Below, piece by piece: positions 26,103 through 43,538 of a stretch of 64,000 nucleotides of DNA. Below the pieces are notes generated by a model. That model worked only from the letters and a program-made list of their open reading frames with translations, had not been told where the DNA came from and did no database searches. A program made the translations under genes and the position numbers. The stretch is taken from assembly GCA_958296135.2 (NCBI GenBank), contig CATQHZ020000001.1, positions 64,001-128,000 on the forward strand. Reading direction: 5' to 3'. Position 1 is the stretch's first letter. Each line of letters begins with the position of its first letter. The stretch is from an uncultured Poribacteria bacterium. Lineage in GTDB: Bacteria > Poribacteria > WGA-4E > WGA-3G.

Positions 26103-27590
26103 CTATAAAATCAACTGCAGCGTCGGTTGTAGCGGTTTGCCGGTGTAAGGATTTTTCATATCCGGCAGCCGCAGCCGCTTACCTTCAAAATGCGCTTGGA
26201 GCGACCAGGGTTGCACGCGGGGATACGTCTCTGTTCCCACGGTGACGGTGCCGAGCCGCAGGAGTTCCGCCTGCGCGTGCCGTGATGTGACAGGGTTCAA
26301 CGCGATGAATATCCCCATCGCCGCCTTCTCCCGTTCCAATGTCCATAAGAAATCGCGAAGTTGGCTCAAGTGGAATCTCCCACCTTTGACTTGCGCGAGC
26401 ACCAGTTTGGAGCCGCTGTCATCGGGCTGCAGGAGCGTGTGGCCTCTGCCATCGATGCCGCCATCGCCGGTTTGGATATCGTTCGGCGCGAACCCTTGTG
26501 AGGCACAATTCAATGCCCAGACCTCAAAGTGACGTGGATTTTCCCTGGCCAACTGCGCCGCTGCTGCAAAATCGGCTGGAATACCACTCGTCGGAATGGC
26601 TCTCCCCGGAAAGCGGTTTAACTTGATGACTTCCAATGCATGCGGCGAGATGTCGATGCCTATCCATTTGCGGTTCAATTTATCCGCAGCGGCGATTGTG
26701 GTACCACACCCACAGAAGGGATCCAGCACGATGTCGCCTTCATTAGTGGAAGCCAGAATGATGCGTTCCAAAAGTTTCAACGGCTTCTGAGTAGGATATC
26801 CAAGATATTCTCGGCTCCGCGTGGCAGTCTGAAAGGAGTGGATGTCATCCCATACATCGCCGTAGGGGATGCCGCCTTCATCTTCATAGTAGCGTCTATT
26901 GCCGCGTTGACGATACCGCCGGCCGTCCTCGTCTGTTTGCGTGAAGCTGCGCGCCATATATTCCGCTGAATAGGGTTCAAACTGCTTGTTGAACGTCGCC
27001 CGGTCCGATTTGACGTAATAGAGGATAGTGTCGTGGTCCCGAATCCAATTTGATGCTCGGCTTTTGAAACCCGAACGTGATTTCATTTGCCACACAATCT
27101 CACGGCGAAAATTTTCCGGTCCAAAGATGCAATCCATGAGCAACTTGAGGGGATGCGCCGCTGTCGCATCGCAGTGGAGGTAGACGCTGCCTGTCGGTTT
27201 GAGCAACCGATGCAGCACAGCAATGCGTTCCGCCATGTAGCTGAGATAGGCGAGCATGCCGCCTTCGCCCGGCCATTTGGCAAACGCTTCTATCACCCGA
27301 TGCGCGGGATGCGCGGGTGCATCGAGCAGATTAGCGACGCGCTCGGCGGCAGTGGCATTCCATCGCCAGGAGTCATTAAAGGCTTGGAGTTGTGCGTCGC
27401 GTGTGCCGCGATTGTCCTCGCTGGTTTCGTAAAGTTGATGATATTTGGCGTTGCTGTTAAACGGCGGATCGAGATAGCAGGTGTCGATGGTTTCATCGGG
27501 CCACTGTTGCAGCACTTCGAGGCAATCATCGTAATGTAAACTGTTAAGTTCAGGGAGTTTGAGCATGGGAGACCTCTTGTGCGGGATCAT
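26103..27590 (-). CDS. amino-DNA methyltransferase (beta class) fused to a C-terminal Mrr-like PD-(D/E)xK domain
   Basis: YLDPPF, YPTQKP, LDPFCGCGT; C-terminal DGGIDG...QVK. Confidence 0.88.
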   Translation of the reverse strand: MIPHKRSPMLKLPELNSLHYDDCLEVLQQWPDETIDTCYLDPPFNSNAKYHQLYETSEDNRGTRDAQLQAFNDSWRWNATAAERVANLLDAPAHPAHRVIEAFAKWPGEGGMLAYLSYMAERIAVLHRLLKPTGSVYLHCDATAAHPLKLLMDCIFGPENFRREIVWQMKSRSGFKSRASNWIRDHDTILYYVKSDRATFNKQFEPYSAEYMARSFTQTDEDGRRYRQRGNRRYYEDEGGIPYGDVWDDIHSFQTATRSREYLGYPTQKPLKLLERIILASTNEGDIVLDPFCGCGTTIAAADKLNRKWIGIDISPHALEVIKLNRFPGRAIPTSGIPADFAAAAQLARENPRHFEVWALNCASQGFAPNDIQTGDGGIDGRGHTLLQPDDSGSKLVLAQVKGGRFHLSQLRDFLWTLEREKAAMGIFIALNPVTSRHAQAELLRLGTVTVGTETYPRVQPWSLQAHFEGKRLRLPDMKNPYTGKPLQPTLQLIL

Positions 27591-27781
27591 CTGAGCTCTT
27601 CCCAGATCAGCATCGGGCTCCCGATGTCACTAACATCGGAGGGTTGCAAGCCCTAACGACTCAGGTGAATTTAGTATTAGAGTTGTAGGCGCGCGTTGTA
27701 AGCGCGCCTACGGGTGCCGTTGCACGGAACAAAGCCTCGCGCAACGGCACCCGAGACCGGTCCAACTCAGGCGAGCTGGAC

Positions 27782-30700
27782 TTAGGGACCCGGTGTCTCC
27801 ACGGGTTCGTCGGTGTCAACCTCCGTGATTGCCAGATTCTGGAAATCGTCAAACCCACTTCCTGCAGGGATGAGCCGGCCGAGGATGACGTTCTCCTTCA
27901 ACCCGAAGAGCTTGTCTGTCTGTCCCTTGACAGCGGCATCTGTCAGCACCTTCGTCGTCTGCTGGAACGAGGCGGCGGAGATGAAACTCTCTGTGCTGAG
28001 TGAGGCGCGGCTAATGCCTTGCAGAATGGGTTCGCCGGTAGCGGGTTCCCCGCCTGCATCGGTAACCAGCGCGTTGACTTGGGCGAATTTCCAGCGTGGC
28101 ACCTCACCGTTCTCGTGGAAGGGCGTATCGCCGGGTTCAAGCACGCGCACCTTCGTCAACATTTGTTTGACGATGGTCTCGAGGTGCTTGTCGTTGATGG
28201 CCCGTCCGCCGTAAACCTTTTGGATTTCCTCAACGAGGTATGTCCAGACTGCTTCCTCGCCTTCAATGGCCACATCTTCAATGAAGACACGCCCGATTCT
28301 GAGGATATCGTGCGGGTTGAGGTATCCATCGGTGAGCGGTTGCCCCGCCTCAACCCGGTCGCCTTCGGTGACGCGTCGTTTTTCGTCAGGAATGGCGTAG
28401 AGGCGGCTTTCGTGCCCTTCATCAACGATACGGTATGTCGGCACACCCGCTTTGGTGCCAGCGGACTCAATGAATCCCTCAATCTCAGCGATTTCTGCCG
28501 CGTCCTCACGTTTTGGACGACGCGCCTCAAAAAGGTCTGTCACGCGCGGAATCCCTGCAACGATGTCCATGTTCGCAGTCTTTTCATGGAGTTCGGCAAG
28601 GGTTTGTTCCACTTTGATAGGCTCGCCCTCTTTGACAGAGAAGGAGTAACCGGCGGTGATGAGATGCGGCACCCGATGCCCATCGGCCGTCTCTACCTCA
28701 ATGTGCATCCGCAGTGCAGGTTCATCGGTATCAAATCCGGGGTAGTGGTCGAACGCGCTTTGGTATTCGACTTCGGATAATTCGTCCCCTACCTTATACG
28801 GACAATTCGGGTGATGCACAGCCGTAACGGTATACTTCCGGAGGGCACGGTAGGCCGCCGCGGTGAGGATTTCGGCCCTATCAAAGGGAAACTGCGTCTT
28901 CGGTTCGTCGACGTAGACCTGATACTTCTCGCAGGCGGCCTGATAGTCGGTTTCAGAAAGATTCTGTTCGACTGTCATGCCGCACTCTGGGTTGAGAACT
29001 GCCTTAACCTGCCAGAATTTCACGAGGCGCGGCTTCTCCCACAGCGAGACAGGGCGCTCTAAATTGTCAACGACGTGCTTATAGCGCGCTACCACAGTGA
29101 AGTCGGCCTTCGCATCGGCCTTCGCATCGGCCTTCGCATCGGTTGACGCGTCTTCTGGAAGCCCAATTGCCGCCACTTCTGGTTCGTCCGGAATGACTCC
29201 AAAGAGGGGTTCAACGTCGAACCCTTTGAATTTCTGTTGGAGTTTCTTGTACTCCTTATCCGTGAGTTCGTCGCCGCTTTCAACGGGGAGTCCTGGGTGA
29301 TAGACAGCAAGCACGCGATGTCGGGGGATGCCCTTATCCTTAATCGTCGGTTCCGTTTTGCGCCGCGTTTTGTCTCGCGTCTCCATTTTGCGTCGCGCCT
29401 GATACTCCGCTTCGGTGAGTCGCTGGACAGGTTCGGCAGCTAAGGGTTGCCACGTTTCCAATTCCGCCTGCGTTAGGATATCGCCCGGCTTAACGCCTGG
29501 AGAGTCCTTTTGCGCTTTCTTGTAGGCGGCGTTGGAAATATCCTGTCCAACCTCCAGTTTGCAGGCGGAATGGAAAACTTCGGTAACGCGCCAGACGTGC
29601 TTGGAGCCCTTCCCGGTAAAAGCGGGCCCTGTTAACGCTTCTGCGGTGAACCCAGGCTTCGCTTCGGTGACGCGAGAGTAGTGCCCTTCGGGCACATCGT
29701 AGGAGTGTTCGACATCAAACGCTTTGAACTTCCGGCGGTATGCCGATGCCTCCTTGGGTGTCATCAGTTCACCCTTCTGCAAAGGGCTGCCCGAGCAATG
29801 AACGGCGGCGATGCGATTGAGGCGCGTGGCTTCAAGCGAACCAACGTGGGCTTCAATGCCACGGAATTGATTCCGCCCCTTTTTTGCCTCGACATCGCTC
29901 ATCAAAGTGCCAGGGGCAAGTGTGCATTCGGGATGATGGATATAGGTGACGCGATGCCGCAACTTCTGGACATCAAAACCCATCCAGCGTGCAAGCATTG
30001 CGTCTTTATCCGTTGTCGTTAAATCCTGACCCGGTTTCAACGGGCAGTCACGATGATGCACTGCCGTGACGTGGTGCAACACTTCCGAGACTCTCTCGGA
30101 TTCAAAGGGCCGATAGTTGGCACACGCTTCTTCGTAAGCATAGCGCGTCAGCATTTCGCCGGCGTGCAGCGGGGCGTTTGCGTCGATAACGTAGACAGGG
30201 TTCGGGGCTTCCTCGAAAGGCGTAAACCACGGGGAAATCTCCCCTGCGGCAACTATCTGTCCGATTTCATAAGGGAAGTCCGGGTGCGCGCTCTCGGTGA
30301 TACGGTAAACGCGTTCAAAAGGCGTGCCTTCCGCAAGGGATGTATCAGCAGAAACCAGGTCTCCCGCCATTGCAGGTGACGTGTCTACCGGCATCGCTGT
30401 CTCCGCTATATCTTCAAGCGACTCCACAGCCGTTTCCGAACTGGGCACCAATTCTTCAACCGACTCGAAAATCTCGCCGGTTTCCGGGATACGGTAACAC
30501 CATTCGCCATCAAAGCCGTTCCGAATCTCTGCCTTGTGCTCCCCGATTTCTGCTTCGGTAAGCAGGTCCCCGGGGCGAACGTTGACAGCAGCAAGCTGGA
30601 CATCCGCTATCTCGCGTTTTTCGGTTGCAAAGCGAGGCAGACCGTAGGTGATTCTCGCTTGATGCCACTGTGCAGCAGAAAGCCGGTCGCCGACTTGCAA

Positions 30701-33700
30701 GTGGCAATCTTTCTCGTGAACAGCGGTTACCCGATGCTGCCATGCCTCAGTATCAAAACCTTTGTAACGTTGCGCGTTTTCGGAGAATTGCTTCTCGCTC
30801 AGCAGCTCATCTACGTTCAAGTGGCACTTCGGATGCGTGACGCGCGTGACTTTGTAGGCTGGCGCGTCGAGGTTCGCACGGTTTCCGGCGTTCGACAGGC
30901 TATTGGGACTTGTGGAACCGCCTTCTTCCGATGCTGCAGTGGCATCGGGGTGCTTTACTGGGGAAATCCCGGGGCCCGTGGATATCCAGAGTTCGCCTTC
31001 CTTGCGGACGGTGATGCCGGGGTGGAAATCCCGGAAGCGGACGGTGCCGCTCGCTTTGGCAAGAATTTTGCGCTGGCGGGCATCGGAGACTTCCTCTACT
31101 GCACCGCCGGTGTGGAACGTCCGCATCGTGAGTTGCGTACCCGGTTCACCAATGGATTGCGCGGCGATAATCCCGATCGCCTCGCCGACAGAGACGCGGA
31201 GGTTCGTCGTCAAATCGTACCCGTAGCATTTCGCGCACGCACCCTCCTCTGTTTCGCACGTGAGCACGGAACGGACGCTGACCTTTTTTATCCCACTCTC
31301 TTCAATCCGCTGCGCGGCCGCTGGAGTGATGATGGCATCTGCAGCGACAAGCAGTTCGTCGGTGACAGGATGTAGGATGTCTTCAGTAGCTGTCCGACCC
31401 GTAATTTTAAAACCGAGTTCTCCGCCTTCGGTGGCAAATTTCTTAATGCCGTGGAACGTGCCGCAGTCCTCTGCCGTAACGCGCACGTCTTGCGCAACAT
31501 CTACCAATTTGCGCGTCAGGTAACCTGAGGCTGCTGTCCGCATCGCCGTGTCAACCAACCCTTTTCGGGAACCATAGGTGGAGTTGAAATAGTCGATTAC
31601 GTCTAAGCCATCGCGATAAGAGGTGGTAATTGGCGGCAGCAAAATTTCACCGCTCTGCTTCGCTTTCAGGCCGATAATCGCACTGATTTGCATGAACGGA
31701 TTCTTCCGGGCCCGCGCACCGCTATCCGCCATGATATGCACAGGACTGAAACCTTCGACAAGCCCACCATGCTTGCTGAAGTACTCGGATAACTCAGCCG
31801 CTGAGTTCGCCTTCAGGAGTTCAATGGCATTCCCACGTTCAACCAGGTGCGTCTCCAATTCGGGCAGCGTGGCGAACATAATGTCTTCCATCTCGTTGAG
31901 CGCCTTAAACCACAAGCGGATCTGCTCGTTCTCGAGTTCTTCCGTATCGGCGGTTGCAGCGGGAGCATTGAGAAGCGCATCGATCGCCTTCTGTGTTCGT
32001 TCAAGCAGGGCCTCCCGGCCTGAAGGCGTAATGTAGTCGATGATGCCAGGCGAAATGCCGCTCAGCGTTGCATATTCAAACGCCAATTTTTGGACCTTGT
32101 CCAAAACCGCCACTGTCGCTTGCGTACCCAGTTCGTTGAAACAGGTTTCCACGATAGCAGATAATTTCCTGCCGCCTGCTTCATCGTTGAAAAACGGCAG
32201 TTGCTGCCCAGAAGCGGCATCCGCCCACTCCAACTCAGCCGGCAGCACCTCGTTAAAAATAACTCTGCCGACAGTGGTGAGAATCGGTGCTTTCCCTTCA
32301 AAGAACAACTGGACGCTGTCGTGCAATTTGAGCTGCTCGGCGCCATGCGCGGCTATGACTTCGGCCGGGTGCGTGTAGCGACGGTAATACCACGGCTTGG
32401 CGCGGAGCTCCGCGAACAGGGACGCATCACCGTTTCTAGCCGTGTATGCCTTGTGGAGCAATTCCGCATCCGCAGCGTGGGTTGGCAGCGTTTTCGTCAG
32501 GTAACTCGGCCCAAGCACCATATCAAGTTCTGGAACAGCAATCGGCCCGCCGTGAGAAGGCTTCAAGATGTTGTGGCTGCTGAGCATCAGCAGCTTCGCT
32601 TCTGCCTGCGCCTCGGCGGTTAACGGCACATGCACTGCCATCTGGTCGCCGTCAAAATCCGCATTGAACGCTTTGCAGACAAGCGGCGGAATCCTGATGG
32701 ATTTGCCTTCAACCAAAACCGGCATGAACGCCTGAATGCCCAACCGATGCAACGTCGGCGGCCGGTTCAGCAACACAGGATGGTCTTGGATAACTTCTTC
32801 CAGCACATCCCAAACCGGACTACTCGGGTCGAGATGCTCCACGAAAGCCTTGGCCCGTTTGATAGTACCGCTGAAACCATACGCTTGCAACCGCTCAATA
32901 ATAAACGGCTTGAACAATTCCACCGCCATCCGTTTCGGGATACCGCATTGGTGGAGTTCTAACTCAGGACCGACAACGATGACGCTCCGCCCGGAGTAGT
33001 CCACGCGTTTGCCGAGAAGGTTCTGGCGGAACCGACCGACTTTCCCTTTCAGGACATGCGAGAGCGATTTTAACTCACGATTGCCCGGACCCGTCACCTT
33101 TCTCCCGTGCCGGCCATTGTCAAAGAACGCATCGACAGCTTCCTGGAGCATCCGTTTCTCGTTGCGTAAAATTATCTCCGGCGAACGGATCTGGATGAGT
33201 TTATGCAGGCGGTTGTTCCGATGGATAAGCCGCCGGTACAAATCGTTCAAATCGCTGGTGGCGAACCGGCCACCGTCTAACGTGACAAGGGGCCGCAGAT
33301 CCGGCGGAATGACAGGCAGCACATCCATAATCATCCACTCGGGCCGCTGTCCGGAGGCGATAAAATCCTCCATCAGTTTGATCTGCTTCGCGAGTTTCAC
33401 CTTTTTCTGGTGGCTCCGCGTTTCCTCAAGCTCCTCGGCGAGTTTCGTACGCTCTGCCTCGAGGTCGATCTGGGCGAGGTGTTCGGCGATAACTTCAGCA
33501 CCAGCACCGGCTTTAAATCGCCCGCGATATTGGCGTTTGAGGGTATCGTATTCTACCTCCGTGAGGAGGCGGTTCGGTTTGAGAATGCCTTGCTGCTGGA
33601 GTTCCTCGTCCACTTCGGTGACAATAAACGCTTCAAAGTAGAGCACGCGTTCAATCTGCCGTGCAGGGAGCTCGCAGAACGCGCCGATGCGCGAGGGGAC

Positions 33701-34102
33701 ACCCTTGAAAAACCAGATATGCGAGACGGGGGATGCAAGTTGGATATAGCCCATCCGTTCCCGGCGCACGTGCTGGCGCGTAACTTCCACGCCGCACCGG
33801 TCGCAGATAACGCCTTTGTGCTTGATCCGCTTATATTTCCCGCAGTTACACTCCCAATCCTTAGACGGCCCGAAGATGGCTTCACAAAAGAGGCCCTCGA
33901 GTTCGGGACGGAAGGAACGGTAGTTAATCGTCTCGGCTTTCTTCACCACCCCGCAGTTGCAAGTGTGCATTTCTGGACAGGTAAAGGGTTCGTCAGGAGC
34001 GACGGTGCTGCTTCTACGTTTGCAGCAAGTGCGCTTCGCCAACGCTTTGATTTCGTCGGGTGATGCGATTTTGATGGAGATACTGTCAAAAGGTGTTGCC
34101 AT
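27782..34102 (-). CDS. rpoC: DNA-directed RNA polymerase subunit beta' with an ~840-aa trigger-loop insertion
   Basis: Zn finger, NADFDGD, SIGEPGTQLTMRTFH, GLKENVILGRLIPAG. Confidence 0.98.
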   Translation of the reverse strand: MATPFDSISIKIASPDEIKALAKRTCCKRRSSTVAPDEPFTCPEMHTCNCGVVKKAETINYRSFRPELEGLFCEAIFGPSKDWECNCGKYKRIKHKGVICDRCGVEVTRQHVRRERMGYIQLASPVSHIWFFKGVPSRIGAFCELPARQIERVLYFEAFIVTEVDEELQQQGILKPNRLLTEVEYDTLKRQYRGRFKAGAGAEVIAEHLAQIDLEAERTKLAEELEETRSHQKKVKLAKQIKLMEDFIASGQRPEWMIMDVLPVIPPDLRPLVTLDGGRFATSDLNDLYRRLIHRNNRLHKLIQIRSPEIILRNEKRMLQEAVDAFFDNGRHGRKVTGPGNRELKSLSHVLKGKVGRFRQNLLGKRVDYSGRSVIVVGPELELHQCGIPKRMAVELFKPFIIERLQAYGFSGTIKRAKAFVEHLDPSSPVWDVLEEVIQDHPVLLNRPPTLHRLGIQAFMPVLVEGKSIRIPPLVCKAFNADFDGDQMAVHVPLTAEAQAEAKLLMLSSHNILKPSHGGPIAVPELDMVLGPSYLTKTLPTHAADAELLHKAYTARNGDASLFAELRAKPWYYRRYTHPAEVIAAHGAEQLKLHDSVQLFFEGKAPILTTVGRVIFNEVLPAELEWADAASGQQLPFFNDEAGGRKLSAIVETCFNELGTQATVAVLDKVQKLAFEYATLSGISPGIIDYITPSGREALLERTQKAIDALLNAPAATADTEELENEQIRLWFKALNEMEDIMFATLPELETHLVERGNAIELLKANSAAELSEYFSKHGGLVEGFSPVHIMADSGARARKNPFMQISAIIGLKAKQSGEILLPPITTSYRDGLDVIDYFNSTYGSRKGLVDTAMRTAASGYLTRKLVDVAQDVRVTAEDCGTFHGIKKFATEGGELGFKITGRTATEDILHPVTDELLVAADAIITPAAAQRIEESGIKKVSVRSVLTCETEEGACAKCYGYDLTTNLRVSVGEAIGIIAAQSIGEPGTQLTMRTFHTGGAVEEVSDARQRKILAKASGTVRFRDFHPGITVRKEGELWISTGPGISPVKHPDATAASEEGGSTSPNSLSNAGNRANLDAPAYKVTRVTHPKCHLNVDELLSEKQFSENAQRYKGFDTEAWQHRVTAVHEKDCHLQVGDRLSAAQWHQARITYGLPRFATEKREIADVQLAAVNVRPGDLLTEAEIGEHKAEIRNGFDGEWCYRIPETGEIFESVEELVPSSETAVESLEDIAETAMPVDTSPAMAGDLVSADTSLAEGTPFERVYRITESAHPDFPYEIGQIVAAGEISPWFTPFEEAPNPVYVIDANAPLHAGEMLTRYAYEEACANYRPFESERVSEVLHHVTAVHHRDCPLKPGQDLTTTDKDAMLARWMGFDVQKLRHRVTYIHHPECTLAPGTLMSDVEAKKGRNQFRGIEAHVGSLEATRLNRIAAVHCSGSPLQKGELMTPKEASAYRRKFKAFDVEHSYDVPEGHYSRVTEAKPGFTAEALTGPAFTGKGSKHVWRVTEVFHSACKLEVGQDISNAAYKKAQKDSPGVKPGDILTQAELETWQPLAAEPVQRLTEAEYQARRKMETRDKTRRKTEPTIKDKGIPRHRVLAVYHPGLPVESGDELTDKEYKKLQQKFKGFDVEPLFGVIPDEPEVAAIGLPEDASTDAKADAKADAKADFTVVARYKHVVDNLERPVSLWEKPRLVKFWQVKAVLNPECGMTVEQNLSETDYQAACEKYQVYVDEPKTQFPFDRAEILTAAAYRALRKYTVTAVHHPNCPYKVGDELSEVEYQSAFDHYPGFDTDEPALRMHIEVETADGHRVPHLITAGYSFSVKEGEPIKVEQTLAELHEKTANMDIVAGIPRVTDLFEARRPKREDAAEIAEIEGFIESAGTKAGVPTYRIVDEGHESRLYAIPDEKRRVTEGDRVEAGQPLTDGYLNPHDILRIGRVFIEDVAIEGEEAVWTYLVEEIQKVYGGRAINDKHLETIVKQMLTKVRVLEPGDTPFHENGEVPRWKFAQVNALVTDAGGEPATGEPILQGISRASLSTESFISAASFQQTTKVLTDAAVKGQTDKLFGLKENVILGRLIPAGSGFDDFQNLAITEVDTDEPVETPGP

Positions 34103-34147
34103 TGCGGATTTTCTCCTATAGCCATTAACGGCCTAGATGAAGATTAA

Positions 34148-34343
34148 GAATTTTTTTCCGCGGGCGATGGACGGATAGAACCATCCGCCCTTACACGCCT
34201 AGAACGGGTAATTTTTTCCGCGGGCGATAGACGGATAGAGCCATCCGCCCTGCCAGTCGGGGGCGATGGCTGCAGCGTTGCGGCATAACGGCCCTCGCCC
34301 TACGAACCGCAGCCCGGCGGCGCAGTCTCAAACCGCGCCTACC
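34148..34343. repeat. rpoB-rpoC intergenic repeat cluster: two ~44-bp direct copies plus REP palindromes
   Basis: ttttttccgcgggcgat(g/a)gacggataga.ccatccgccct at 34148 and 34210; related copy at 48356. Confidence 0.75.
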
Positions 34344-34371
34344 GAGGACTACTACGGGCACCTGACACGGA

Positions 34372-37300
34372 TTACTTTTCTTCAGGCGGGTTCAGGGAGA
34401 CGCTGAGGCCGAGCCCCTGGAGCTCGCGCACAAGAACGTTGAAAGACTCCGGCGTGCCGGGGGTTTCAGGGTTGCGTCCCTTTACCACCGCCTCGTAAAT
34501 TTTCGCTCTGCCCCTGAAATCGTCGGATTTGAGCGTGAGCATTTCCTGGAGGGTGTGCGCTGCGCCGTAGGCCTCCAATGCCCACACCTCCATCTCACCC
34601 AGCCGCTGCCCGCCGTGCTGCGCCTTGCCGCCTAACGGCTGCTGCGTAACAAGCGAGTAAGGGCCAGTTGAACGGGCGTGCATCTTGTCGGCAACGAGGT
34701 GGTTCAGTTTGAGGAAATAAACATATCCCACCGTAACCTCCTGGCCGAAGGGTTCACCCGTTCTGCCATCGTAAAGGATGCTTTTCCCGGTCTGTTTGCT
34801 ACGCTCGGGCAGGTGCGTCTTCGCGAGTTGCCCGAAGATTTCCTGCTCAGTCGCGCCGTCAAAAACGGGGGACTCGGCGTAGATGCCCAATTCATGGCAC
34901 GCCCATCCGAGGTGAATCTCAAGAATCTGCCCCACATTCATGCGCGATGGCACGCCCAGCGGATTCAGCACGATATCTACCGGCGTGCCATCGGGCAGGT
35001 AGGGCATATCCTCTTTCGGCAAAATCTCTGCCACCACGCCTTTGTTGCCGTAGCGGCCGGCCATCTTATCGCCGATGGAAATGTGGCGTGTGGTAGCGAC
35101 ATAGACTTTGACAAGTTTAATCACGCCTTGTTTGAGTTCATCGCCGAGTTCCATCTGCTTGAGCGACATCGCTTTCTCTTCGGTGTAGGCCGCGATGCGC
35201 TCATCAGCGATTTCCTCAACGCGCTGGATGTAACTCATCGCCTTCAAATCGGCGACGCGGATATCGCTGAGGACAACGCCGGGTGTCTGGAGGAGTTCCC
35301 CTGTCACTAAGTCGCCGGCTTCTGCAAGCGGTTTGAAGGTGACATCGGGTACTGCGTCATCGTCGCCATCATTGGCGCGTAAGAGGGCCGCTTCGGTGAC
35401 GAGACTCTCGAAAATAGGTTCCGCCAATTCGCATCCGATGAGGGTGTTCCGAATTTCCTCATCCCGCCGCCGGCGAATAGCACGAAGATGCGCCTGGTAG
35501 GTTTCGTCTATCTCCTTCCGCTTTGCGTCGTATCGGAGCTGGTCTGCGTCAGCGAAGCTCTGCGGCCCAGGCTTCCGGGTTGGCTCCTGTTTTCTTGTGA
35601 AGACTTTCACGTCAATCACGATGCCTTCAATGCCGGGTTTGACATAAGTCGAAGCGTCTCGGACTTCGCGCACCTTTTCACCGAAGATGACGTGCAGCAG
35701 TTTTTCCTCCGGTCCGTAATCGCTTTCGCCTTTCGGCGTAATCTTACCGACGAGGATGCTACCCGCGCCAACAAGGCTCCCGACACGGATGATACCCTCT
35801 TCGTCCAGCTGCGAGAGCCGTTGGTCGCTCATATCGGGGATATCGCGCGTAATTTCTTCCGGGCCCATCTTCGTCTCTCGCGCCTCCACCTCAAATTCCT
35901 CGATATGGATGGAACTAAAGGTAGCATTTTGCACAAGCGTATCACTAATGAGGATGGAATCCTCGTAGTTATGCCCACCCCACGGCATATAGGCGCACAA
36001 GACGTTCCGGCCAAGCGCGAGTTCGCCTTCCTCGGTGGAAGTACCATCGGCGATGACATCGCCTGCCGCCACTTTATCGCCGACAGAAACGATAGGACGC
36101 TGATGGATGCACGTGCCGCTGTTGCTCCGCTTGAAAGTGTGGAGTTGATACCGGTCGTACCCCATCTCACTCTTGTGTTGTTCGCCGATGTCTGCGTGAA
36201 GTGCCTCATCGGTATGAATGATGATATCCTCGGCGGAGACGCTCTCGACGGTGCCGCTGCGTTTGGCGATGCCGAGGGCCCCTGAATCCCGGGCGACGCG
36301 TACCTCCATGCCGGTGCCGACAAGTGGGGCTTCTGGCGTGATGAGCGGCACTGCCTGTCGCTGGTGATTCGCGCCCATCAAAGCCCGGTTCGCGTCTTCA
36401 TGCTCTAAAAAGGGCACAAGTGCAGCAGACACACCGACAATCTGCGAGGGTGACACGCCGACGTAGTCCACCTCGGCTAGCGGTAAAGAGAAGATATCTT
36501 CGCCTTTCCGCGCAGGCAGATGAATCCCGGTGTCGCGTGTCTGATGTCCGTTTTTCACCCCGCGGGGTGCAGCTTTGGCGGCGATGCACGCCCGGTCCTC
36601 CCTATTCGCGGTGAGGTATTCGATCTTCAGCTCCTCCAAGGGTTTGCCGGGCTGCACCTTGTAATAAGGTGTCTCGATAAACCCATACGGATTTATCCGC
36701 GCATAACACGCCAGTGAGACAAGCAATCCGATAGAGGGGCCTTCCGGTGTCTCTAACGGACAGACGCGCCCGTAGTGTGTGTGATGCACATCGCGAACAG
36801 CAGCGGTGGCTCTGTCGCGCGAGAGTCCACCGGGCCCGATGGCTGAGATGCGCCGCTTGTGCGTCAATTCATCAAGCGGGTTTACCTGCTGCATGAACTG
36901 CGACAACTGGTTTGAACCGAAGAACTCGCGGAGAGAAACCATCAGCGGCTTCGGGTTAATCAGGGCTGTCGGCACGCAGGTGCGCATATCCGCTGAGGAG
37001 ATACGTTCTCGCGTTGCACGCCGAATCTGGAATAAGCCGATGCCGAATTGGTTTTCGAGCAATTCTCCGATAACCCGCACGCGGCGGTTGCCGAGGTGGT
37101 CCAAGTCGTCCTTGGGCACGAGGCCGTTTTGGACATCAAGGAGGTGCCGCAGCGTCGCCGCGATGTCCTCCGGGCGGAGCGCGCGGAATTTCTCATCTGG
37201 CCGTTCGCCATAGATGGCGAGATGTCCGAGTTTCTCGTTGATTTTGTAACGGCCGACAGTGCCTAAGTCGTAGCGATGCGGGTCAAAGAAGTGCCACGTC

Positions 37301-38928
37301 AGCTGCCGCTGCGCCGCCTCAACGGTAGCAGGTTCCCCCGGGCGGAGGATTTTGTGAATCTCGATAAGTGCAGCGTCCTGAATCGGCGTTTCGCTCTGCC
37401 GTCCAGTAGCGTTTACGCTTGGCGGGTAGTCCGCCTCTTTATCGCGTTCCAGTGTATTCCGTAAGAATCGGAGGGCTTTGGCATCTTCCGGTGCAAGGAC
37501 GGTAAGTGTCTCGATACCAGCATCGCGGAGACGTTCAACTTCTGTCTCAGTGAGCAGAGTATTCGCTGTTACGAGCAGTTCCCCGGTTCTCGGTTCGACA
37601 ATAGGTTCGGCACAGACGCTGCCGAGCGTGTCGTGGATATCTGTGGGTTCAAGTTCCGCCACCGAGAAGTTGCCGCGGTGCATTGCAAGCATTTCGGTGT
37701 ATTCCGTCGGCGTGAGGACTTGGCCTACTTTCAAAGGACAGCCTGTATTCAGAATGTTAGTAACCTGAAGGAGGCGTTCGGTTGTGAACCCTTTCCACTT
37801 CCGGCGTTCGCGGGTGCGTTCGGGCGACGTGAGCATCTGCCCCTCTTCAAGCGGGCACCCTTTGTCGATAACGGAGGTGACACGATAGCACGGTTCGATT
37901 TCAATGCCGGGATATGCCTTCAGTGCCTTTTTATACTTTTCATCTGGCACAATATCGCCGATAGCGTAGGGGCAGTCTGTCCGGTAGAGCGTCGTGACGT
38001 GCCAGACGCGTGCAAATGTCGTCGTCTTCCACGTTTTGCGATGCTGTGCCCACTCGTTCTGTGTGAGCCTATCGCCGACTGCGACGGGGCACGCTGCATC
38101 AGGGACATCGACAACTTCGTAGAAGCGTTCTGCTGCGAAGCCCGGATATTTGGCATCGTAGTTCCGATGTTCCGCAGCAGTGAGGCAATCGCCTATGCTG
38201 AGGGGGCATTCCGGGATAGGCACTTCGGTGACGCGCCAGCCGGCAAGCACGACGCGCGTCGGCTCAGCGAACAGTTTCAAGATATCGGCATCCGTTCCCC
38301 ATCCGAGCGCGCGGAGGAGCACGGAAGCAGGTATTTTCTTGCGCTTATTTAAGCGGACATAGAGCTGGTCCTTCGAGTCCGTCTCAAATTCCACCCAGGA
38401 GCCGCGGTAAGGGATGATCTGGGCGGTGTGCGAGCGTTGTCCGCTCGGGAGCACCTTATCCATAAAAATCACACCGGGGGAACGGTGCAATTGGTTGACG
38501 ATGACGCGTTCGCTGCCGTTGATGATGAAGGAGGCGTTCTCTGTCATCAACGGGACTTCGCCGAAATAGACATCGGACTCGCGGATATCGATGATGTGCG
38601 GTTCGTCGTCCTCGGTATCCTTCTCACAGACGATGAGCCGGAGGCGCGCGGTGAGGGATACCTGATAGGTGACACCTCTAGCGAGACACTCGTCAAGTGT
38701 GTATTTGGGCTCGCCGAGTCGATAATACACGAATTCGAGACGCGACACCTCGCTGAAATCGGCGATAGGAAACACTTCTTGGAAGACAGCTTGCAAGCCG
38801 CTATCGGCGCGGTGTTGGGGCTGCGTATCGCGCTGCAAAAAATTTGCATAGGCGCGCTGCTGTGTCTCAATCAAATTTGGGAGGGGCGTGCGAACGTCTG
38901 TTTTGGCGAAAGAGAGGCGTTTTTTCAT
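34372..38928 (-). CDS. rpoB: DNA-directed RNA polymerase subunit beta with a five-unit repeat insertion
   Basis: QLHRSPG, ETPEG, GDKMAGRYGNKG, GGQRLGEMEVWALEAYG. Confidence 0.98.
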   Translation of the reverse strand: MKKRLSFAKTDVRTPLPNLIETQQRAYANFLQRDTQPQHRADSGLQAVFQEVFPIADFSEVSRLEFVYYRLGEPKYTLDECLARGVTYQVSLTARLRLIVCEKDTEDDEPHIIDIRESDVYFGEVPLMTENASFIINGSERVIVNQLHRSPGVIFMDKVLPSGQRSHTAQIIPYRGSWVEFETDSKDQLYVRLNKRKKIPASVLLRALGWGTDADILKLFAEPTRVVLAGWRVTEVPIPECPLSIGDCLTAAEHRNYDAKYPGFAAERFYEVVDVPDAACPVAVGDRLTQNEWAQHRKTWKTTTFARVWHVTTLYRTDCPYAIGDIVPDEKYKKALKAYPGIEIEPCYRVTSVIDKGCPLEEGQMLTSPERTRERRKWKGFTTERLLQVTNILNTGCPLKVGQVLTPTEYTEMLAMHRGNFSVAELEPTDIHDTLGSVCAEPIVEPRTGELLVTANTLLTETEVERLRDAGIETLTVLAPEDAKALRFLRNTLERDKEADYPPSVNATGRQSETPIQDAALIEIHKILRPGEPATVEAAQRQLTWHFFDPHRYDLGTVGRYKINEKLGHLAIYGERPDEKFRALRPEDIAATLRHLLDVQNGLVPKDDLDHLGNRRVRVIGELLENQFGIGLFQIRRATRERISSADMRTCVPTALINPKPLMVSLREFFGSNQLSQFMQQVNPLDELTHKRRISAIGPGGLSRDRATAAVRDVHHTHYGRVCPLETPEGPSIGLLVSLACYARINPYGFIETPYYKVQPGKPLEELKIEYLTANREDRACIAAKAAPRGVKNGHQTRDTGIHLPARKGEDIFSLPLAEVDYVGVSPSQIVGVSAALVPFLEHEDANRALMGANHQRQAVPLITPEAPLVGTGMEVRVARDSGALGIAKRSGTVESVSAEDIIIHTDEALHADIGEQHKSEMGYDRYQLHTFKRSNSGTCIHQRPIVSVGDKVAAGDVIADGTSTEEGELALGRNVLCAYMPWGGHNYEDSILISDTLVQNATFSSIHIEEFEVEARETKMGPEEITRDIPDMSDQRLSQLDEEGIIRVGSLVGAGSILVGKITPKGESDYGPEEKLLHVIFGEKVREVRDASTYVKPGIEGIVIDVKVFTRKQEPTRKPGPQSFADADQLRYDAKRKEIDETYQAHLRAIRRRRDEEIRNTLIGCELAEPIFESLVTEAALLRANDGDDDAVPDVTFKPLAEAGDLVTGELLQTPGVVLSDIRVADLKAMSYIQRVEEIADERIAAYTEEKAMSLKQMELGDELKQGVIKLVKVYVATTRHISIGDKMAGRYGNKGVVAEILPKEDMPYLPDGTPVDIVLNPLGVPSRMNVGQILEIHLGWACHELGIYAESPVFDGATEQEIFGQLAKTHLPERSKQTGKSILYDGRTGEPFGQEVTVGYVYFLKLNHLVADKMHARSTGPYSLVTQQPLGGKAQHGGQRLGEMEVWALEAYGAAHTLQEMLTLKSDDFRGRAKIYEAVVKGRNPETPGTPESFNVLVRELQGLGLSVSLNPPEEK

Positions 38929-39168
38929 TTTTCGTATTTCCTAGCGGTTGTTTAGCTACCTCTGTGACGAAAACGTTGTTGAACCAGGGCCAGCAACGCC
39001 ATTAGCGATGACGATGACGATGACGATGTCGATGTCGATGTCCTTGGTCCTTCTTCTCTGCCAGGAAAGGAGGCTAGTGATTTTTTAGCGTTTTTCTAAC
39101 GTGGTTTGAAAACAACGAAAAACAAGCGGATTCTATCTCAATTTTATGCAAATATAGCATAACGTAAA

Positions 39169-39197
39169 ATTATACTACATTTTTTAGCAAATGTCAA
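39169..39197 (-). promoter_or_regulatory. consensus sigma70 promoter for rpoBC
   Basis: TTGACA-17 bp-TATAAT with an AT-rich upstream tract. Confidence 0.75.
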
Positions 39198-39345
39198 ATT
39201 AAAAATGCGAAAAAAACGTTTTTTTGCAGATTTTTTTAGAAAATCCGGTTAAAAACAGAAAACTTTTGATTTTTCGCGGCGAACATGGTATTATTTTGGG
39301 AGAAGATACAGAAAAATTGATGCAAATTGTCGCGGAGGAGATACA

Positions 39346-39882
39346 ATGGGCGTGCTCACATCACCCTTGCCGGTAAAACCCATCATCGCCGTGCTGACAG
39401 CAGCACCGCCGCTGCTGCCAGCTGTCCATCAGGCTTTGGCGCGTCGCCTCGGCCCAATTGATTGGACCAGCGCGCTATTACCGTTTACGAACACGAATTA
39501 CTACGCGGCGGAGATGGGCGAGAATCTGCAACGGCAGTTTCTCAGTTTCGAGCAGCTCATGGACGCGGCGGAGTTGGCGGCGATGAAGAGGTTCACCAAT
39601 CAGGTAGAACAGGCGTTTGCGCGCGAAGGAACACACCATCGGCGCGTCAATTTAGACGCAGGCTACCTCTGCTCGGCGAAGCTTGTCCTCGCATCCACGA
39701 AGGACCACGCGCATCGCATCTATCTCCGCGACGGTATCTATGCCGAAATCACCCTCCGTTTCCATCGCAAAACGTTCCAGCCGTGGGCATGGACGTATCC
39801 GGATTATCGTTCACAAGCCTACATTGATATTTTTAATCACATTCGCACTATCTATAGGGAGCAACTGAAAAACATCTTATGA
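39346..39882 (+). CDS. DUF4416 family protein
   Basis: YYAAEMG, RRVNLDAGY, HRIYLRDGIYAE, WTYPDY. Confidence 0.85.
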   Translation: MGVLTSPLPVKPIIAVLTAAPPLLPAVHQALARRLGPIDWTSALLPFTNTNYYAAEMGENLQRQFLSFEQLMDAAELAAMKRFTNQVEQAFAREGTHHRRVNLDAGYLCSAKLVLASTKDHAHRIYLRDGIYAEITLRFHRKTFQPWAWTYPDYRSQAYIDIFNHIRTIYREQLKNIL

Positions 39883-41219
39883 ACACAACGTCACACCACT
39901 CCGTTCCTCGTAGCGCGGGGCCCTGTCCTCCGCCCTGTCCTCTGCCCTGTCCTCCGCGATGCCTCGGCCCTCAGGAGGTTCTCGTAAAAAAAGGGCCCCG
40001 AGGCCAACAGAACAAAAACGTCGTCATTGACAATGTCAATGAGGGTGCTCGTAAGGCAACTGTCTCTCAATTAGGGAGACTGGCCGAACGCCTGGCGATA
40101 TACAAAAAACTCGCGGTCATTTTTTTAACGCTGTTGACTCATACCCCGATAGTTTCTCAAGAAGCGGAGGTGCCTCGTGCGCGGGCACGGGAGCTCGGCA
40201 TTCGGATAGGGCAATTCTCACCGGGTGAAAACAACGCCATCACCGATGTGCCAGGCGTGAAGGTGGGACATGTCACGCTGAATGAAGGCGAGTCCCTCCG
40301 CACCGGTGTCACCGCTGTCGTGCCGCGGGAGGATATATGGGAGGCGCGGCTGTTTGGCGCGGCGCATGTCATACACGGCAATGGCGAGGCAACCGGCATC
40401 GCACGCATCAACCAAGCCGGTTGGATCGAATCGCCCATCTTGCTCACGAACACGCTGAGTGTCGGACCGGTTCACGATGGCGTTGTCCGGTATATCGTCA
40501 AGCGGTATCCTGATAACAACATTGTACTGCCGATTGTTGCAGAATGTTACGATGGCGGTTTGAACGACATTGATGGACTCCACGTCACCGCAGAACACGC
40601 AATTCAGGCGATAGAGAACGCTACCGCCGGCCCTGTCGCAGAAGGCTGTGTGGGCGCAGGCACGGGAATGCGGTGCTACGGCTTCAAAGCCGGAATTGGC
40701 ACTGCCTCGCGGGTGCTGCCACCCGAACGCGGCGGATGGCGAGTCGGGGTACTCGTTAATTCCAACGGCGGACGGCGGCATCAGTTGCGGATTGACGGCG
40801 TGCCAGTGGGACAAGAAATTACGGATGTTCGCGCAAAACGGGGCAGAGACGGCTCGTTTATCATCGTCATCGCGACAGATGCACCGTTAACGCATCGCCA
40901 GTTGAAACAGATAGCGGTGCGCGCGACGCACGGCCTTGCGCGCACCGGCACCCCAAGCACAGACGGCAGCGGCGAGTTCGTCATCGCATTCTCCACGGCG
41001 AACGTAATCCCAGACGATACGGCAGACGGCACCTTTCCGATTCGGATGACGGAAAATTGGCGGTTGAGTGCCCTCTTTCAGGCAGCAATTGAGGCGACAG
41101 AGGAGGCAGTTGTCAATTCAATGACGATGGCGACGACAACCGTCGGCCGCAACGGGAATACGATGTATGCTATTCCGTTGGAGCGGTTGCAACAGGTAAT
41201 GGAGAAATATGGACGTTAG
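39879..41219 (+). CDS. P1/S58 (DmpA-like) aminopeptidase; true start may lie downstream of the repeat-derived N-terminus
   Basis: NAITDVPGVKVGH, GAGTGM, DGSFIIVIATDAPL autoprocessing site, EATEEA. Confidence 0.9.
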   Translation: MNTTSHHSVPRSAGPCPPPCPLPCPPRCLGPQEVLVKKGPRGQQNKNVVIDNVNEGARKATVSQLGRLAERLAIYKKLAVIFLTLLTHTPIVSQEAEVPRARARELGIRIGQFSPGENNAITDVPGVKVGHVTLNEGESLRTGVTAVVPREDIWEARLFGAAHVIHGNGEATGIARINQAGWIESPILLTNTLSVGPVHDGVVRYIVKRYPDNNIVLPIVAECYDGGLNDIDGLHVTAEHAIQAIENATAGPVAEGCVGAGTGMRCYGFKAGIGTASRVLPPERGGWRVGVLVNSNGGRRHQLRIDGVPVGQEITDVRAKRGRDGSFIIVIATDAPLTHRQLKQIAVRATHGLARTGTPSTDGSGEFVIAFSTANVIPDDTADGTFPIRMTENWRLSALFQAAIEATEEAVVNSMTMATTTVGRNGNTMYAIPLERLQQVMEKYGR

Positions 41220-41297
41220 GCCCCGTAGGCGCAGTTTGGCACCGCGCACAGGACGATTTAGTTCTCCCAAATTCGGTTCATTTTCACCGGCGGGCGG

Positions 41298-43538
41298 CTA
41301 TTGAACGCTTTGCACCAATACGAACGACTTTGGCACGACATCGTAATGCGAAAACTCTAACGTGAACGCACCGCGGCCCTGTGTCATAGAACGGAGTGAC
41401 GTTGTGTATTGGAACGTTTCTGACAACGGAATCAGGGCTTTGATAATGGTGACTGTCTCCTGACGCATCCCACTCTCATGAATCTGGGCGCGGCGGGCAT
41501 TCAGGTCACCGATGACTTTGCCGACATGCGCGTCTGGGACAGTGACATGTATCTGCATGATGGGTTCGAGAAGCAACGGGTTCGCCTTTCTCACCGCATT
41601 TTCAAAAGCGAGGACAGCGGCCGCTTCATACGCTATTTCTGAGGAATCTGTCGGATGCATAGAACCCCCGGTGAGCGTTACCTTGATGTCCTGCAGTGCG
41701 TATCCGATGAGCGCGCCTGTCCCCATCGCGCGGCGGAGCGCATGCTGAATAGATGGAATATAGTGGCGCGGTATATGAGTCTCGTCCGTGGTATCCGCAA
41801 ACTGAAAACCCGCGCCGCGTGCCAGCGGCTCCACGGTGAGAGTGACATCTCCGTAGATGCCTTCCTCGTCTGTCTTATGAATGTGTGTGCCGCGTGCTTC
41901 CGCCGCACTGCCGATGGTCTCCCGATACGCCACCTGCAATTGGCTCACCCGCGCGTTCACGCCGAATTCGCGCAGCATCCGGTCTGTCAAGATTTCCAAG
42001 TGGAGTTCACCCATCCCAGAGATGATGCGTTGTCCCGTCTCTTTGTCGATACCGACAGTGAACGTCGGGTCTTCGTCCATCAATTTCTGGAGTGTTTCCT
42101 CTAGCGCGTCTGCATCGCTAGCGCGTTCCGGTTCAATCGCAATGGAAATGACCGGGGGTGGAAAGTCGATGGAGGCGAGCAGGATAGGATGCGCCGGTTC
42201 TGTCAACGTATCCCCTGTTTTCGTATGCTTCAGGCCCACGAGCGCGACAATGTCGCCTGCGTAAGCGGCATCGCGCACCGCCTCTTTATTGGCGTGCATC
42301 TGGAGGATGCGGTTTATCCGTTCCCGTTTTCCGGTGCTGACGTTCATAACGACTTCGCCGCGTCTGAGCGTGCCTGAATAGACGCGGCAGTATACCAATT
42401 TATCGACGGTGGGGTGGCTTACCACCTTAAACGCTAGCGCAGAAAAAGGTGCTTCGTCGTTCGCCATGCGTTCGGCTTTTTCGTCGTTCGCGAGGCGTTC
42501 GGCTTTTTCGTCGTTCGCGAGGCGTTCGGCGTGCATCTCTGGTGGTGCGACAGTTGTCTTACCAGGGCCGTCATCAACGTTGTTGATGACTAGGTTTTGG
42601 ATGCTATTTTGGTACGGTAGGGCATCGGGGATTGTCCCTTGAATGGGGGGCACGTCAAGAGGCGATGGCAGAAAATTTATCACTGCATCCAGCAGCGGCT
42701 GAACGCCGACATTTTTCAAGGCACTGCCGCACAGCACTGGCACTAACGTTCCGTTCAGCGTCGCAGTGCGGATGCCCCCCACTAATTCTGCGCATGTGAG
42801 TTCCTCACCGGCGAAATATTTTTCCAGCAGCGCGTCATCTTCGGCGGCGACGCTTTCACAGAGGTTCTCCCGCGCGCGGGCGATTTGCTCGCGTGTCGGT
42901 AGCGCAGGCGACTCGCCCCCATGCTCACTCAGCTGCCAAAGTTCAACTTCACGATAGGTTTGCCCGAAGTCTTCCGAGTTCCAGTAGAGTGCCTTCTGTG
43001 TGAGAAGATCGGTGATGCCGACGAAGGTGTTTCCTTCACCGATAGGCAACTGAAGGGGCAGTGGGTTTGCGCCAAGCCGTTCATGCATCATCGCGAGGGT
43101 GCGGGCGAAATTCGCGCCGACTCTATCCATCTTATTGACGAATGCGATACGCGGGACACCGTAGCGTTCCGCCTGATGCCAGATAGTCTCGGACTGTGGC
43201 TCCACGCCACCGACAGCACAGAAGAGCGCGATGGCACCATCTAAAACGCGCAGCGAACGTTCGACTTCTACCGTGAAATCGACGTGTCCGGGGGTATCGA
43301 TGAGATGCAGCGCGCAGTTGTGCCAGAAACAGGTAGTTGCAGCAGCGGTGATAGTCACGCCGCGCTCGCGCTCCTGCACCATCCAATCCATCTCGGCGGT
43401 GCCATCGTCTACCGTGCCGATTTTATGTTTCTTGCCGGTAGTGTAGAGGATACGTTCGGTGACTGTCGTCTTGCCAGCATCGATGTGCGCGGCAATGCCA
43501 ATGTTACGAACGTGCTGAATCGAAGTATCACGTGCCAT
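41298..43538 (-). CDS. fusA: elongation factor G (stand-alone, divergent copy)
   Basis: [38 protein letters not shown]. Confidence 0.9.
42549..42590 (-). repeat. best-conserved copy of a dispersed ~38-bp hairpin element (in frame inside EF-G)
   Basis: GTCATCAAC-AAC-GTTGATGAC-GGCCCTGGTAAGACAAC; relatives near 13262, 14522, 16807, 18232, 19491, 22594, 24574, 38974, 40023. Confidence 0.8.

Follow-up and report, generated by a model that had tools for sequence, protein, structure and literature searches.

Two subunits of the RNA polymerase of an uncultured Poribacteria bacterium carry tandem arrays of the same module of about 39 residues. Their genes, rpoB and then rpoC, lie in a stretch of 64,000 nucleotides of assembly GCA_958296135.2 (contig CATQHZ020000001.1, positions 64,001 to 128,000 of the forward strand), which we call the window and whose own numbering is used for nucleotide coordinates below. 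We consider it probable that the arrays are tandem copies of the 'small left claw' (sLC) module of the beta' clamp, which spread within one family of a Poribacteria-like order into the SI3 insert of the trigger loop and subsequently into the beta-i4 site of the beta lobe, and which have been kept there as non-catalytic surface structures that tune transcription. The identity of the two host genes is clear, both passing their NCBIfam equivalog models by a wide margin.

34372-38928, minus strand: rpoB, RNA polymerase beta subunit, open reading frame (ORF) of 1518 residues; TIGR02013 at 1595 bits, Pfam Rpb2 domains
27782-34102, minus strand: rpoC, RNA polymerase beta' subunit, ORF of 2106 residues; TIGR02386 at 1412 bits, Pfam Rpb1 domains

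Tandem units in the beta lobe and the trigger loop

A sequence-only reading of the window had described five consecutive units of about 39 residues in RpoB, each with a CP...G motif, at 37660-38240. The array maps to 38241-37657 and comprises RpoB residues 230 to 424, where five units follow one another head to tail with an exact period of 39 residues and C-P-x3-G is present in every one of them. The units start at W231, Y270, W309, Y348 and L387, with one preceding residue added for mapping. The units, scored with the iterated unit hidden Markov model (HMM) described below, and the domain that follows them are as listed.

38125-38241, minus strand: beta unit 1 (RpoB 230-268), type A helix (..YPGF), 50.3 bits
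38008-38124, minus strand: beta unit 2 (RpoB 269-307), type B helix (..RKTWK), 42.3 bits; within the 78-residue, two-unit indel that separates this array from three-unit relatives
37891-38007, minus strand: beta unit 3 (RpoB 308-346), 36.6 bits
37774-37890, minus strand: beta unit 4 (RpoB 347-385), 50.1 bits; 70% identity with the orthologous unit of genome G055
37657-37773, minus strand: beta unit 5 (RpoB 386-424), 27.5 bits
37483-37626, minus strand: canonical BBM2-type unit of beta-i4 with a TGE motif (RpoB 435-482), next to the C-terminal end of the array; alignable with solved beta chains and with E. coli beta ~287-337

Searches of general databases left the array without a name. Pfam returned nothing above its cut-off (the top entry was DR2241, E 0.058), a PDB sequence search with RpoB 177-509 matched the flanks and the canonical BBM2 and nothing in the array, and the ESM Atlas search gave no usable match. 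Similarly, no Pfam family was found in an antisense ORF that overlaps the array (37633-38352, plus strand) and no Rfam match was obtained for window positions 27000-39600. The sole recurring piece of DNA in the array is a 27-nucleotide motif around the Cys-Pro codons, with 63-78% identity between copies. Tandem Repeats Finder detected no DNA-level tandem repeat there. Thus, the units are old, and reflect neither a recent amplification nor an assembly artefact.

The presence of the same units in RpoC was assessed with an HMM trained on no sequences but the five beta units, and hence independent of RpoC. This model returned 15 domain rows, nine of them with an independent E-value of 0.001 or lower (best 3.5e-10), and all nine lay within RpoC residues 1083 to 1792, bearing out the match between the beta units and the RpoC insertion units that had been noticed from the letters. 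Iteration of the profile extended it to 121 proteins and 781 unit matches. With the iterated HMM the RpoB units scored 27.5-50.3 bits and ten RpoC units 15.8-45.4 bits, with one further, partial RpoC unit at 7.2 bits; the maximum across 600 shuffled RpoB and RpoC sequences was 7.8 bits. The iterated model was partly trained on these same units, and the non-circular tests are the beta-only HMM and the RpoB-only profile comparison given in the next section. Taken together, these profile matches support the view that the beta units and the units of the beta' insert are one module. Furthermore, a profile search of the whole genome (71,406 six-frame ORFs, 5.19 Mb) ranked rpoC first (E 6.7e-105) and rpoB second (E 3.4e-61), with the next ORF at 0.035; within this genome the module is restricted to these two genes.

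28568-31096, minus strand: trigger-loop insert occupying the SI3 site (RpoC ~1003-1845), with SBHM-type SI3 remnants flanking ~15 module-like units and three disordered linkers; placed by motif spacing, E. coli alignment and AlphaFold2 model
30743-30859, minus strand: beta' unit (RpoC 1082-1120), 30.9 bits; orthologues in genera g2, g3 and g4 with support of 98 in the Shimodaira-Hasegawa-like approximate likelihood ratio test (SH-aLRT)
30620-30739, minus strand: beta' unit (RpoC 1122-1161), 40.3 bits
30092-30208, minus strand: beta' unit without Cys (RpoC 1299-1337), 15.8 bits
29963-30079, minus strand: beta' unit (RpoC 1342-1380), 32.5 bits; the orthologous unit in relative P0123 holds a nested restriction endonuclease (REase) domain
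29843-29959, minus strand: beta' unit (RpoC 1382-1420), 23.3 bits
29705-29821, minus strand: beta' unit (RpoC 1428-1466), 22.9 bits
29480-29596, minus strand: beta' unit (RpoC 1503-1541), 45.4 bits
29207-29323, minus strand: beta' unit (RpoC 1594-1632), 37.1 bits
28901-29017, minus strand: beta' unit (RpoC 1696-1734), 32.3 bits
28721-28837, minus strand: beta' unit (RpoC 1756-1794), 43.7 bits

Alignment to the E. coli subunits placed the arrays at the two sites that had been proposed for them, the beta lobe and SI3. In E. coli K-12 numbering the beta insert opens after beta ~226-230, at the beta-i4/SI1 site (225-343), and the canonical TGE-bearing unit behind the array pairs with the second of the E. 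coli BBM2 units. A single canonical BBM2 is found in all 15 RpoB proteins of the phylum that were compared, and the Cys-Pro units have been added N-terminal of it in three genera only. In beta', 854 residues separate the trigger-loop motifs FHTGG (996) and GIPRV (1850), compared with 188-221 residues in eight array-free relatives; this is the SI3 site, E. coli beta' ~945 to ~1130. The relatives possess an E. coli-like SI3 of two SBHM domains, and only positions 1-34 and 154-216 of its profile can still be detected in the RpoC studied here. To judge by these remnant matches the terminal strands of the insert may together form an SBHM; no SBHM-type Pfam domain was matched in RpoC 1030-1800.

A separate observation concerns the rpoC DNA. 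A perfect tandem repeat of 12 nucleotides in 3.3 copies (29103-29142, minus strand) encodes KADAKADAKAD in the AlphaFold-disordered stretch RpoC 1640-1663, and is the only recent-looking DNA repeat of rpoBC.

Kinship with the clamp segment

The units were compared by hhalign with an alignment of entire beta' proteins, seven of them Poribacterial and without arrays and one from E. coli (1426 columns). A single match was obtained, to a segment of the beta' clamp (probability 91%, E 1.1e-6), so that a profile comparison with beta' ~140-180, which the sequence-only reading had put forward as a check, came out in favour of its proposal. A profile made from RpoB units only likewise found the clamp segment alone (probability 90.7%, E 1.3e-6). 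As controls, E was 0.16 with the profile reversed and no lower than 0.014 in 30 permutations of its columns.

33515-33634, minus strand: beta' clamp segment, sLC domain beta'-bD2 (RpoC 157-196), the probable source of the module, with the C-P motif lost in this genus; aligns to E. coli beta' 142-181

The likeness to this RpoC's own clamp segment, as originally drawn, fails by itself: the segment scores 1.2 bits with the unit HMM, which is not significant and was equalled by about seven shuffled sequences. It holds through relatives, since the clamp segments of genomes G055, G015, G010, G003 and G001 score 22.4-30.4 bits with the same model, reading V-x-E-V-x-D-P-x-C-P-L-x-x-x-Q-x-L-T-E-x-E-Y. 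When the unit profile was run against 177,635 distinct PDB sequences the top four entries were beta' chains, matched at residues 141-175 (E 0.027-0.053), and E. coli beta' alone was matched at 154-174 (E 0.047). As a comparison of sequence profiles, the homology of module and clamp segment is firm within this order, and it reaches other bacteria through the orthology of the clamp segment.

In the available text of Alvarez-Carreno et al. 2024 (PMC11515920), E. coli residues 142-181 are named beta'-bD2, an sLC domain (CATH 3.30.60.280) homologous to beta'-bD7. The same text describes rare beta' variants with additional sLC domains inserted in bD2, bD4, bD5 and bD7, and mentions Poribacteria nowhere.

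The proposal that a core clamp sub-domain had been duplicated and then spread to two subunits is upheld as to its origin. The accompanying suggestion that the copies gained a Cys is not: D-P-x-C-P-L is already present in the clamp segment of the array-free sister families, and the Cys-Pro is therefore older than the spread. In genus g1, to which this genome belongs, and likewise in P0123, the Cys-Pro loop of the clamp segment has been replaced.

Could the beta array instead be a BBM2/BEAN insert of the usual multi-copy kind, whose units have diverged and carry Cys-Pro? We regard this as very improbable. Its site is exactly beta-i4, for which, as Opalka et al. state, one to six tandem BBM2 repeats had been predicted, and a canonical TGE-bearing BBM2 unit directly follows the array. 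Yet that canonical BBM2 scores -1.5 bits with the unit profile, hhalign of the units against a full-length beta alignment gives E 0.24 compared with E 1e-6 for the clamp sLC of beta', and the TGD/E motif, which PMC11515920 gives for RNAP-beta BEAN domains, occurs in none of the five units. An interim interpretation, with the units as a BBM2 variant and the clamp segment as a BBM2 of beta', was dropped upon adoption of the domain naming in the available text of PMC11515920 and with the same two scores in hand.

The conserved Cys raises a further alternative, that the arrays bind metal or sense redox state, assisted in beta' by a His. Cys occupies unit position 12 in 67-79% of units, and position 9 is His in 69% of 56 SI3 units (often as H-H-P-x-C-P), with Asp in the beta and clamp units. 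However, there is only one Cys per unit, it is not invariant (F, A, S or L stands in its place in several), it was inherited from the clamp segment, and no metal-binding family was matched. We accordingly give this alternative very little credence.

Distribution, selection and possible role

The unit profile was scanned against 61 genomes of the phylum. In family f1, 36 of 37 genomes were matched, with 6-17 matches each; the single exception is a genome 90% complete in which rpoC was likewise not found. All genomes of families f2 (6/6) and f3 (11/11) gave exactly one match, which was the clamp segment wherever inspected. None was matched in families f4, f5, f6 and f8 (0 matches), and one of the two f7 genomes gave a single, marginal match. 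Reading frames for beta' measure 1868-2383 residues in f1 versus 1411-1445 residues in f2 and f3, and reach 2605 residues among the RpoC relatives listed. All organism-named homologues are Candidatus Poribacteria (six RpoB and seven RpoC, among 120 matches listed for each), and both loci found by a single-protein scan of genome contigs belong to Candidatus Poribacteria metagenome-assembled genomes (MAGs).

A tree of the beta' core (927 columns) resolves f1 as (g3,(g1,g4)) plus g2, on a long stem. The beta' array occurs in all four of these genera and the beta array in the three-genus clade (g1,g3,g4); three g2 RpoB proteins examined have no unit, and the RpoC proteins that accompany them have 9-15. 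The most parsimonious order begins with a clamp sLC bearing Cys-Pro throughout the order, followed by an SI3 array in the f1 ancestor and a beta-i4 array in the ancestor of (g1,g3,g4); loss of the beta array in g2 is the alternative to its late gain. On the favoured order, the module of long strand, Cys-Pro loop, short strand and 10-residue helix would descend from the clamp sLC (beta'-bD2, E. coli 142-181), would have been copied out of the clamp and multiplied in one family, would first have filled the trigger-loop insert, and would next have entered the beta lobe on the N-terminal side of an ancestral single BBM2 unit. The beta array may then have grown from three units to five by one in-register duplication of two units. 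Between the five-unit arrays and the g3 arrays of three units there is one in-register indel of 78 residues, equal to two units, with break points inside the helix, the signature of unequal crossing-over. In the unit phylogeny that had been suggested as a check, several groups of positional orthologues emerged (SH-aLRT 95-99), and most units best match the positionally equivalent unit in other genera. With 37 columns, too few for more, the tree supports positional orthology only.

Two observations on relatives stand apart from this order of events. In g2, loci L035 (G045; RpoC 1146-1361) and L036 (G019) have beta' inserts at additional points upstream of the trigger loop, which a rough alignment puts near E. 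coli 664-711 and 821-857, and G045 has 4+3 near-identical units, a recent amplification. In addition, one g3 genome has a second, shorter RpoC-like frame of 1073 residues (G056:C1:367865-370984), far from rpoBC.

AlphaFold2 modelled RpoB 226-430 from 30 alignment rows with a mean predicted local distance difference test score (pLDDT) of 93.8 and a predicted template modelling score (pTM) of 0.77. Each predicted beta unit consists of an 11-12-residue strand running across the unit boundary, an 11-residue Cys-Pro...Gly loop, a strand of 2-3 residues and a helix of 10 residues. For RpoC 985-1870 the mean pLDDT was 73.9 and pTM 0.41, the unit pattern being repeated about 15 times with units at pLDDT 84-94. 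The model divides the beta' insert into three unit blocks, with linkers predicted to be disordered at RpoC 1037-1078, 1220-1259 and 1640-1663.

The ratio of nonsynonymous to synonymous substitution rates (dN/dS) against a Poribacteria MAG is 0.19 in the beta array and 0.10-0.13 in its flanks. The beta array is under purifying selection.

What the arrays are maintained for can be approached through E. coli. According to PMC6970531, the beta lobe-Si1 of E. coli forms one wall of the DNA channel, and TraR uses both Si1 and Si3. By that paper and the abstracts of others, both inserts influence pausing and the stability of the open complex, and regulators of the secondary channel dock on them. Since the arrays occupy these same sites, we infer that they are selected surface extensions which modulate the same steps. 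As non-catalytic structures they would lengthen two mobile modules, the lobe of beta and the insert of the trigger loop, which border the face of the enzyme where the downstream DNA and the secondary channel lie. By analogy with SI1 and SI3 they might tune open-complex stability and pausing, and might offer docking surfaces for lineage-specific factors.

The two arrays had also been suggested to contact one another across the downstream side of the enzyme, an arrangement that we consider improbable. Both sites are indeed on the side of the downstream and secondary channels, a single E. coli factor, TraR, touches Si1 as well as Si3 (PMC6970531), and both arrays are built of one module with long strands that are exposed in the models. 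Set against this are the g2 genomes, which have the beta' array and no beta array, so that the beta' array would work without a beta partner. A complex prediction of RpoC 1027-1800 with RpoB 226-430, made without controls, returned a score of 0.00 and a mark of 0.32, and speaks neither for contact nor against it.

A more serious competitor comes from nuclease domains in relatives. PF18741 (REase_MTES_1575) is nested in frame in the RpoC of P0123 (residues 1328-1421), P0131 and P0167, and PF13588 (HSDR_N_2) in the RpoB of P0007 (904-956); by precomputed Pfam assignments, PF18741 is present in 12 RpoC relatives among the 120 matches listed. The P0123 domain interrupts the Cys-Pro loop of a unit whose counterpart in this genome, RpoC 1342-1380, is intact, a presence/absence difference between close relatives. 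Relatives carry units at further beta and beta' sites. A Cys/His-rich stretch between the RpoB units of P0008, P0011, P0014 and P0118 follows what we take to be an HNH pattern, and Pfam gave no HNH in P0011 (E <= 0.01). Among 1.84 billion representative proteins, 47 match the unit profile at E <= 0.001: to judge by reading their sequences, about 25 are polymerase subunits or array fragments, four are non-polymerase proteins, one is uncertain and about 17 are unrelated repeat proteins. In the non-polymerase proteins P0132, P0136, P0139 and P0144 the same Cys-Pro units stand beside HSDR_N_2-like domains, and in the longer of these the units are followed by what looks by eye like a membrane helix, then by a coiled coil and by TPR repeats. 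A genome search with P0132 gave mostly TPR matches, apart from residues 193-490, which match the beta-i9 insert in g3 RpoB.

These domain arrangements hint that the spread of the module may have been aided by in-frame cassettes of a selfish kind. It is conceivable, although we think it unlikely, that the arrays are largely fossils of a mobile cassette, in frame and unspliced, whose copies travel with or receive nuclease domains and remain, of no use to the polymerase, at surface sites that tolerate them. In its fullest form, which we hold to be equally doubtful, the module would be the repeat unit of a domain-level mobile element with REase-fold domains nested in its Cys-Pro loop; this element would have entered six or more surface sites on the two large subunits, as well as a few other Poribacteria proteins, leaving the nuclease-free arrays found here as domesticated fossils. 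The nested nucleases, the several further insertion sites, the units beside HSDR_N_2-like domains in P0132 and P0136 and the near-identical units of G045 all speak for a cassette. However, no nuclease, intein or HNH Pfam family is present in this genome's rpoB or rpoC, and the number and register of the units are kept across genera. The dN/dS of the array and its confidently predicted fold likewise argue otherwise, nuclease activity and mobility are themselves only putative, and the HNH-like motif was not borne out by Pfam in P0011.

We return to the explanation that we favour, of clamp-derived arrays kept by selection, against which several points must be weighed. The nuclease domains nested in relatives' units suggest a history that is partly selfish rather than adaptive. 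Similarity to the sLC outside this order is marginal (E 0.03-0.05). Most of the unit tree (77 units) lacks resolution, 45 of its 74 inner branches being left open, and the direction from beta' to beta is accordingly one of parsimony only. In the AlphaFold2 input, beta units 2 and 3 were covered by only five alignment rows. A Foldseek search of the PDB with the beta array model gave no match at E <= 0.001 (best 0.38), beta' chains appearing among the weak matches only (best probability 0.47); thus, the sLC fold is assigned from sequence and from the succession of secondary-structure elements. The array also diverges faster than the core, at 73% identity versus 89-91% (P0003) and 48% versus 72-74% (P0006), and the synonymous divergence behind the selection estimate is near saturation (dS 1.27).

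The surroundings of the two genes yielded observations of their own. A gene for an N6/N4 DNA methylase fused to an Mrr_cat-like restriction endonuclease domain (26103-27590, minus strand) lies immediately downstream of rpoC. The genes rplJ and rplL are not upstream of rpoB (38929-43538); the neighbours on that side are divergent DUF4416 and peptidase S58 genes, with an EF-G-like gene beyond them (41298-43538, minus strand). Near the N-terminal zinc region of beta', RpoC ~25-55 (window 33940-34030) forms an additional Cys-rich segment, CCKRR...FTCPEMHTCNCG, which is kept in the family consensus.

Significance and comparison with known inserts

Two kinds of module have been thought to make up the lineage-specific inserts of bacterial polymerases, namely BBM2/BEAN for beta and SBHM/HABAS for the trigger loop of beta'. 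The clamp's own sLC sub-domain would be a third building block, recruited as a repeat unit and filling both classic sites. With its source traceable in sister families, where the segment is present once, this is an unusually clean and datable case of a core sub-domain becoming an insertional repeat and crossing between subunits. A strongly remodelled transcription machine thereby marks a candidate phylum of uncultured, sponge-associated bacteria. The trigger loop folds and unfolds at every nucleotide addition, and one with some 850 extra residues raises questions of elongation rate and pausing. The nested nucleases of relatives pose another, namely whether essential enzymes accrete domains through the action of selfish elements. 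No earlier account of such arrays was found in full-text searches of the literature on polymerase inserts or Poribacteria, judged by titles, the opening of abstracts and selected passages, and an earlier record of sLC-type inserts at these two sites is possible.

With the BBM2/BEAN insert at beta-i4 (E. coli SI1, beta 225-343; PDB 3LTI) the beta array shares its insertion point in the beta lobe, its tandem repetition and the one canonical unit that has been kept. Its units differ in belonging by sequence to another module family than BBM2/BEAN (CATH 3.90.105.10), with no TGD/E motif in any of the five. E. coli beta-i4 is described, in the part of the literature available, as highly acidic; the Poribacterial array has a net charge of 0 across its 195 residues.

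The number of SBHM (HABAS) domains in trigger-loop inserts is two in E. coli and nine in cyanobacteria. With these SI3/beta'-i6 inserts the beta' array shares the trigger-loop insertion point, the character of a nested, recursively enlarged insert and terminal pieces that match a two-SBHM SI3. It differs in that its bulk, some 770 residues, consists of sLC-like units and disordered linkers rather than SBHM domains. The assignment of BEAN (BBM2 pair) domains to beta'-bD5 and to beta inserts, and of HABAS domains to trigger-loop inserts, follows the available text of PMC11515920.

Closest to the present case are the sLC domains themselves (beta'-bD2 and beta'-bD7). The units are profile-homologous to the beta'-bD2 of relatives, and their order of elements (strand, loop, short strand, helix, strand) fits the clamp segment. 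Whereas the available text of PMC11515920 lists sLC insertions at other sites, here they form tandem arrays, of five and of about 10-15 copies, in the beta-lobe i4 site and the trigger loop (uD5), neither of which is listed there for sLC. P0140, a 2029-residue beta' from a metagenome contig, matches the unit profile at E 2.6e-15 over seven stretches. By reading of its sequence, the clamp sLC and the helices that follow it appear to be repeated about eight times in that protein; this repetition is in situ at the clamp, lacks Cys-Pro and belongs to another lineage.

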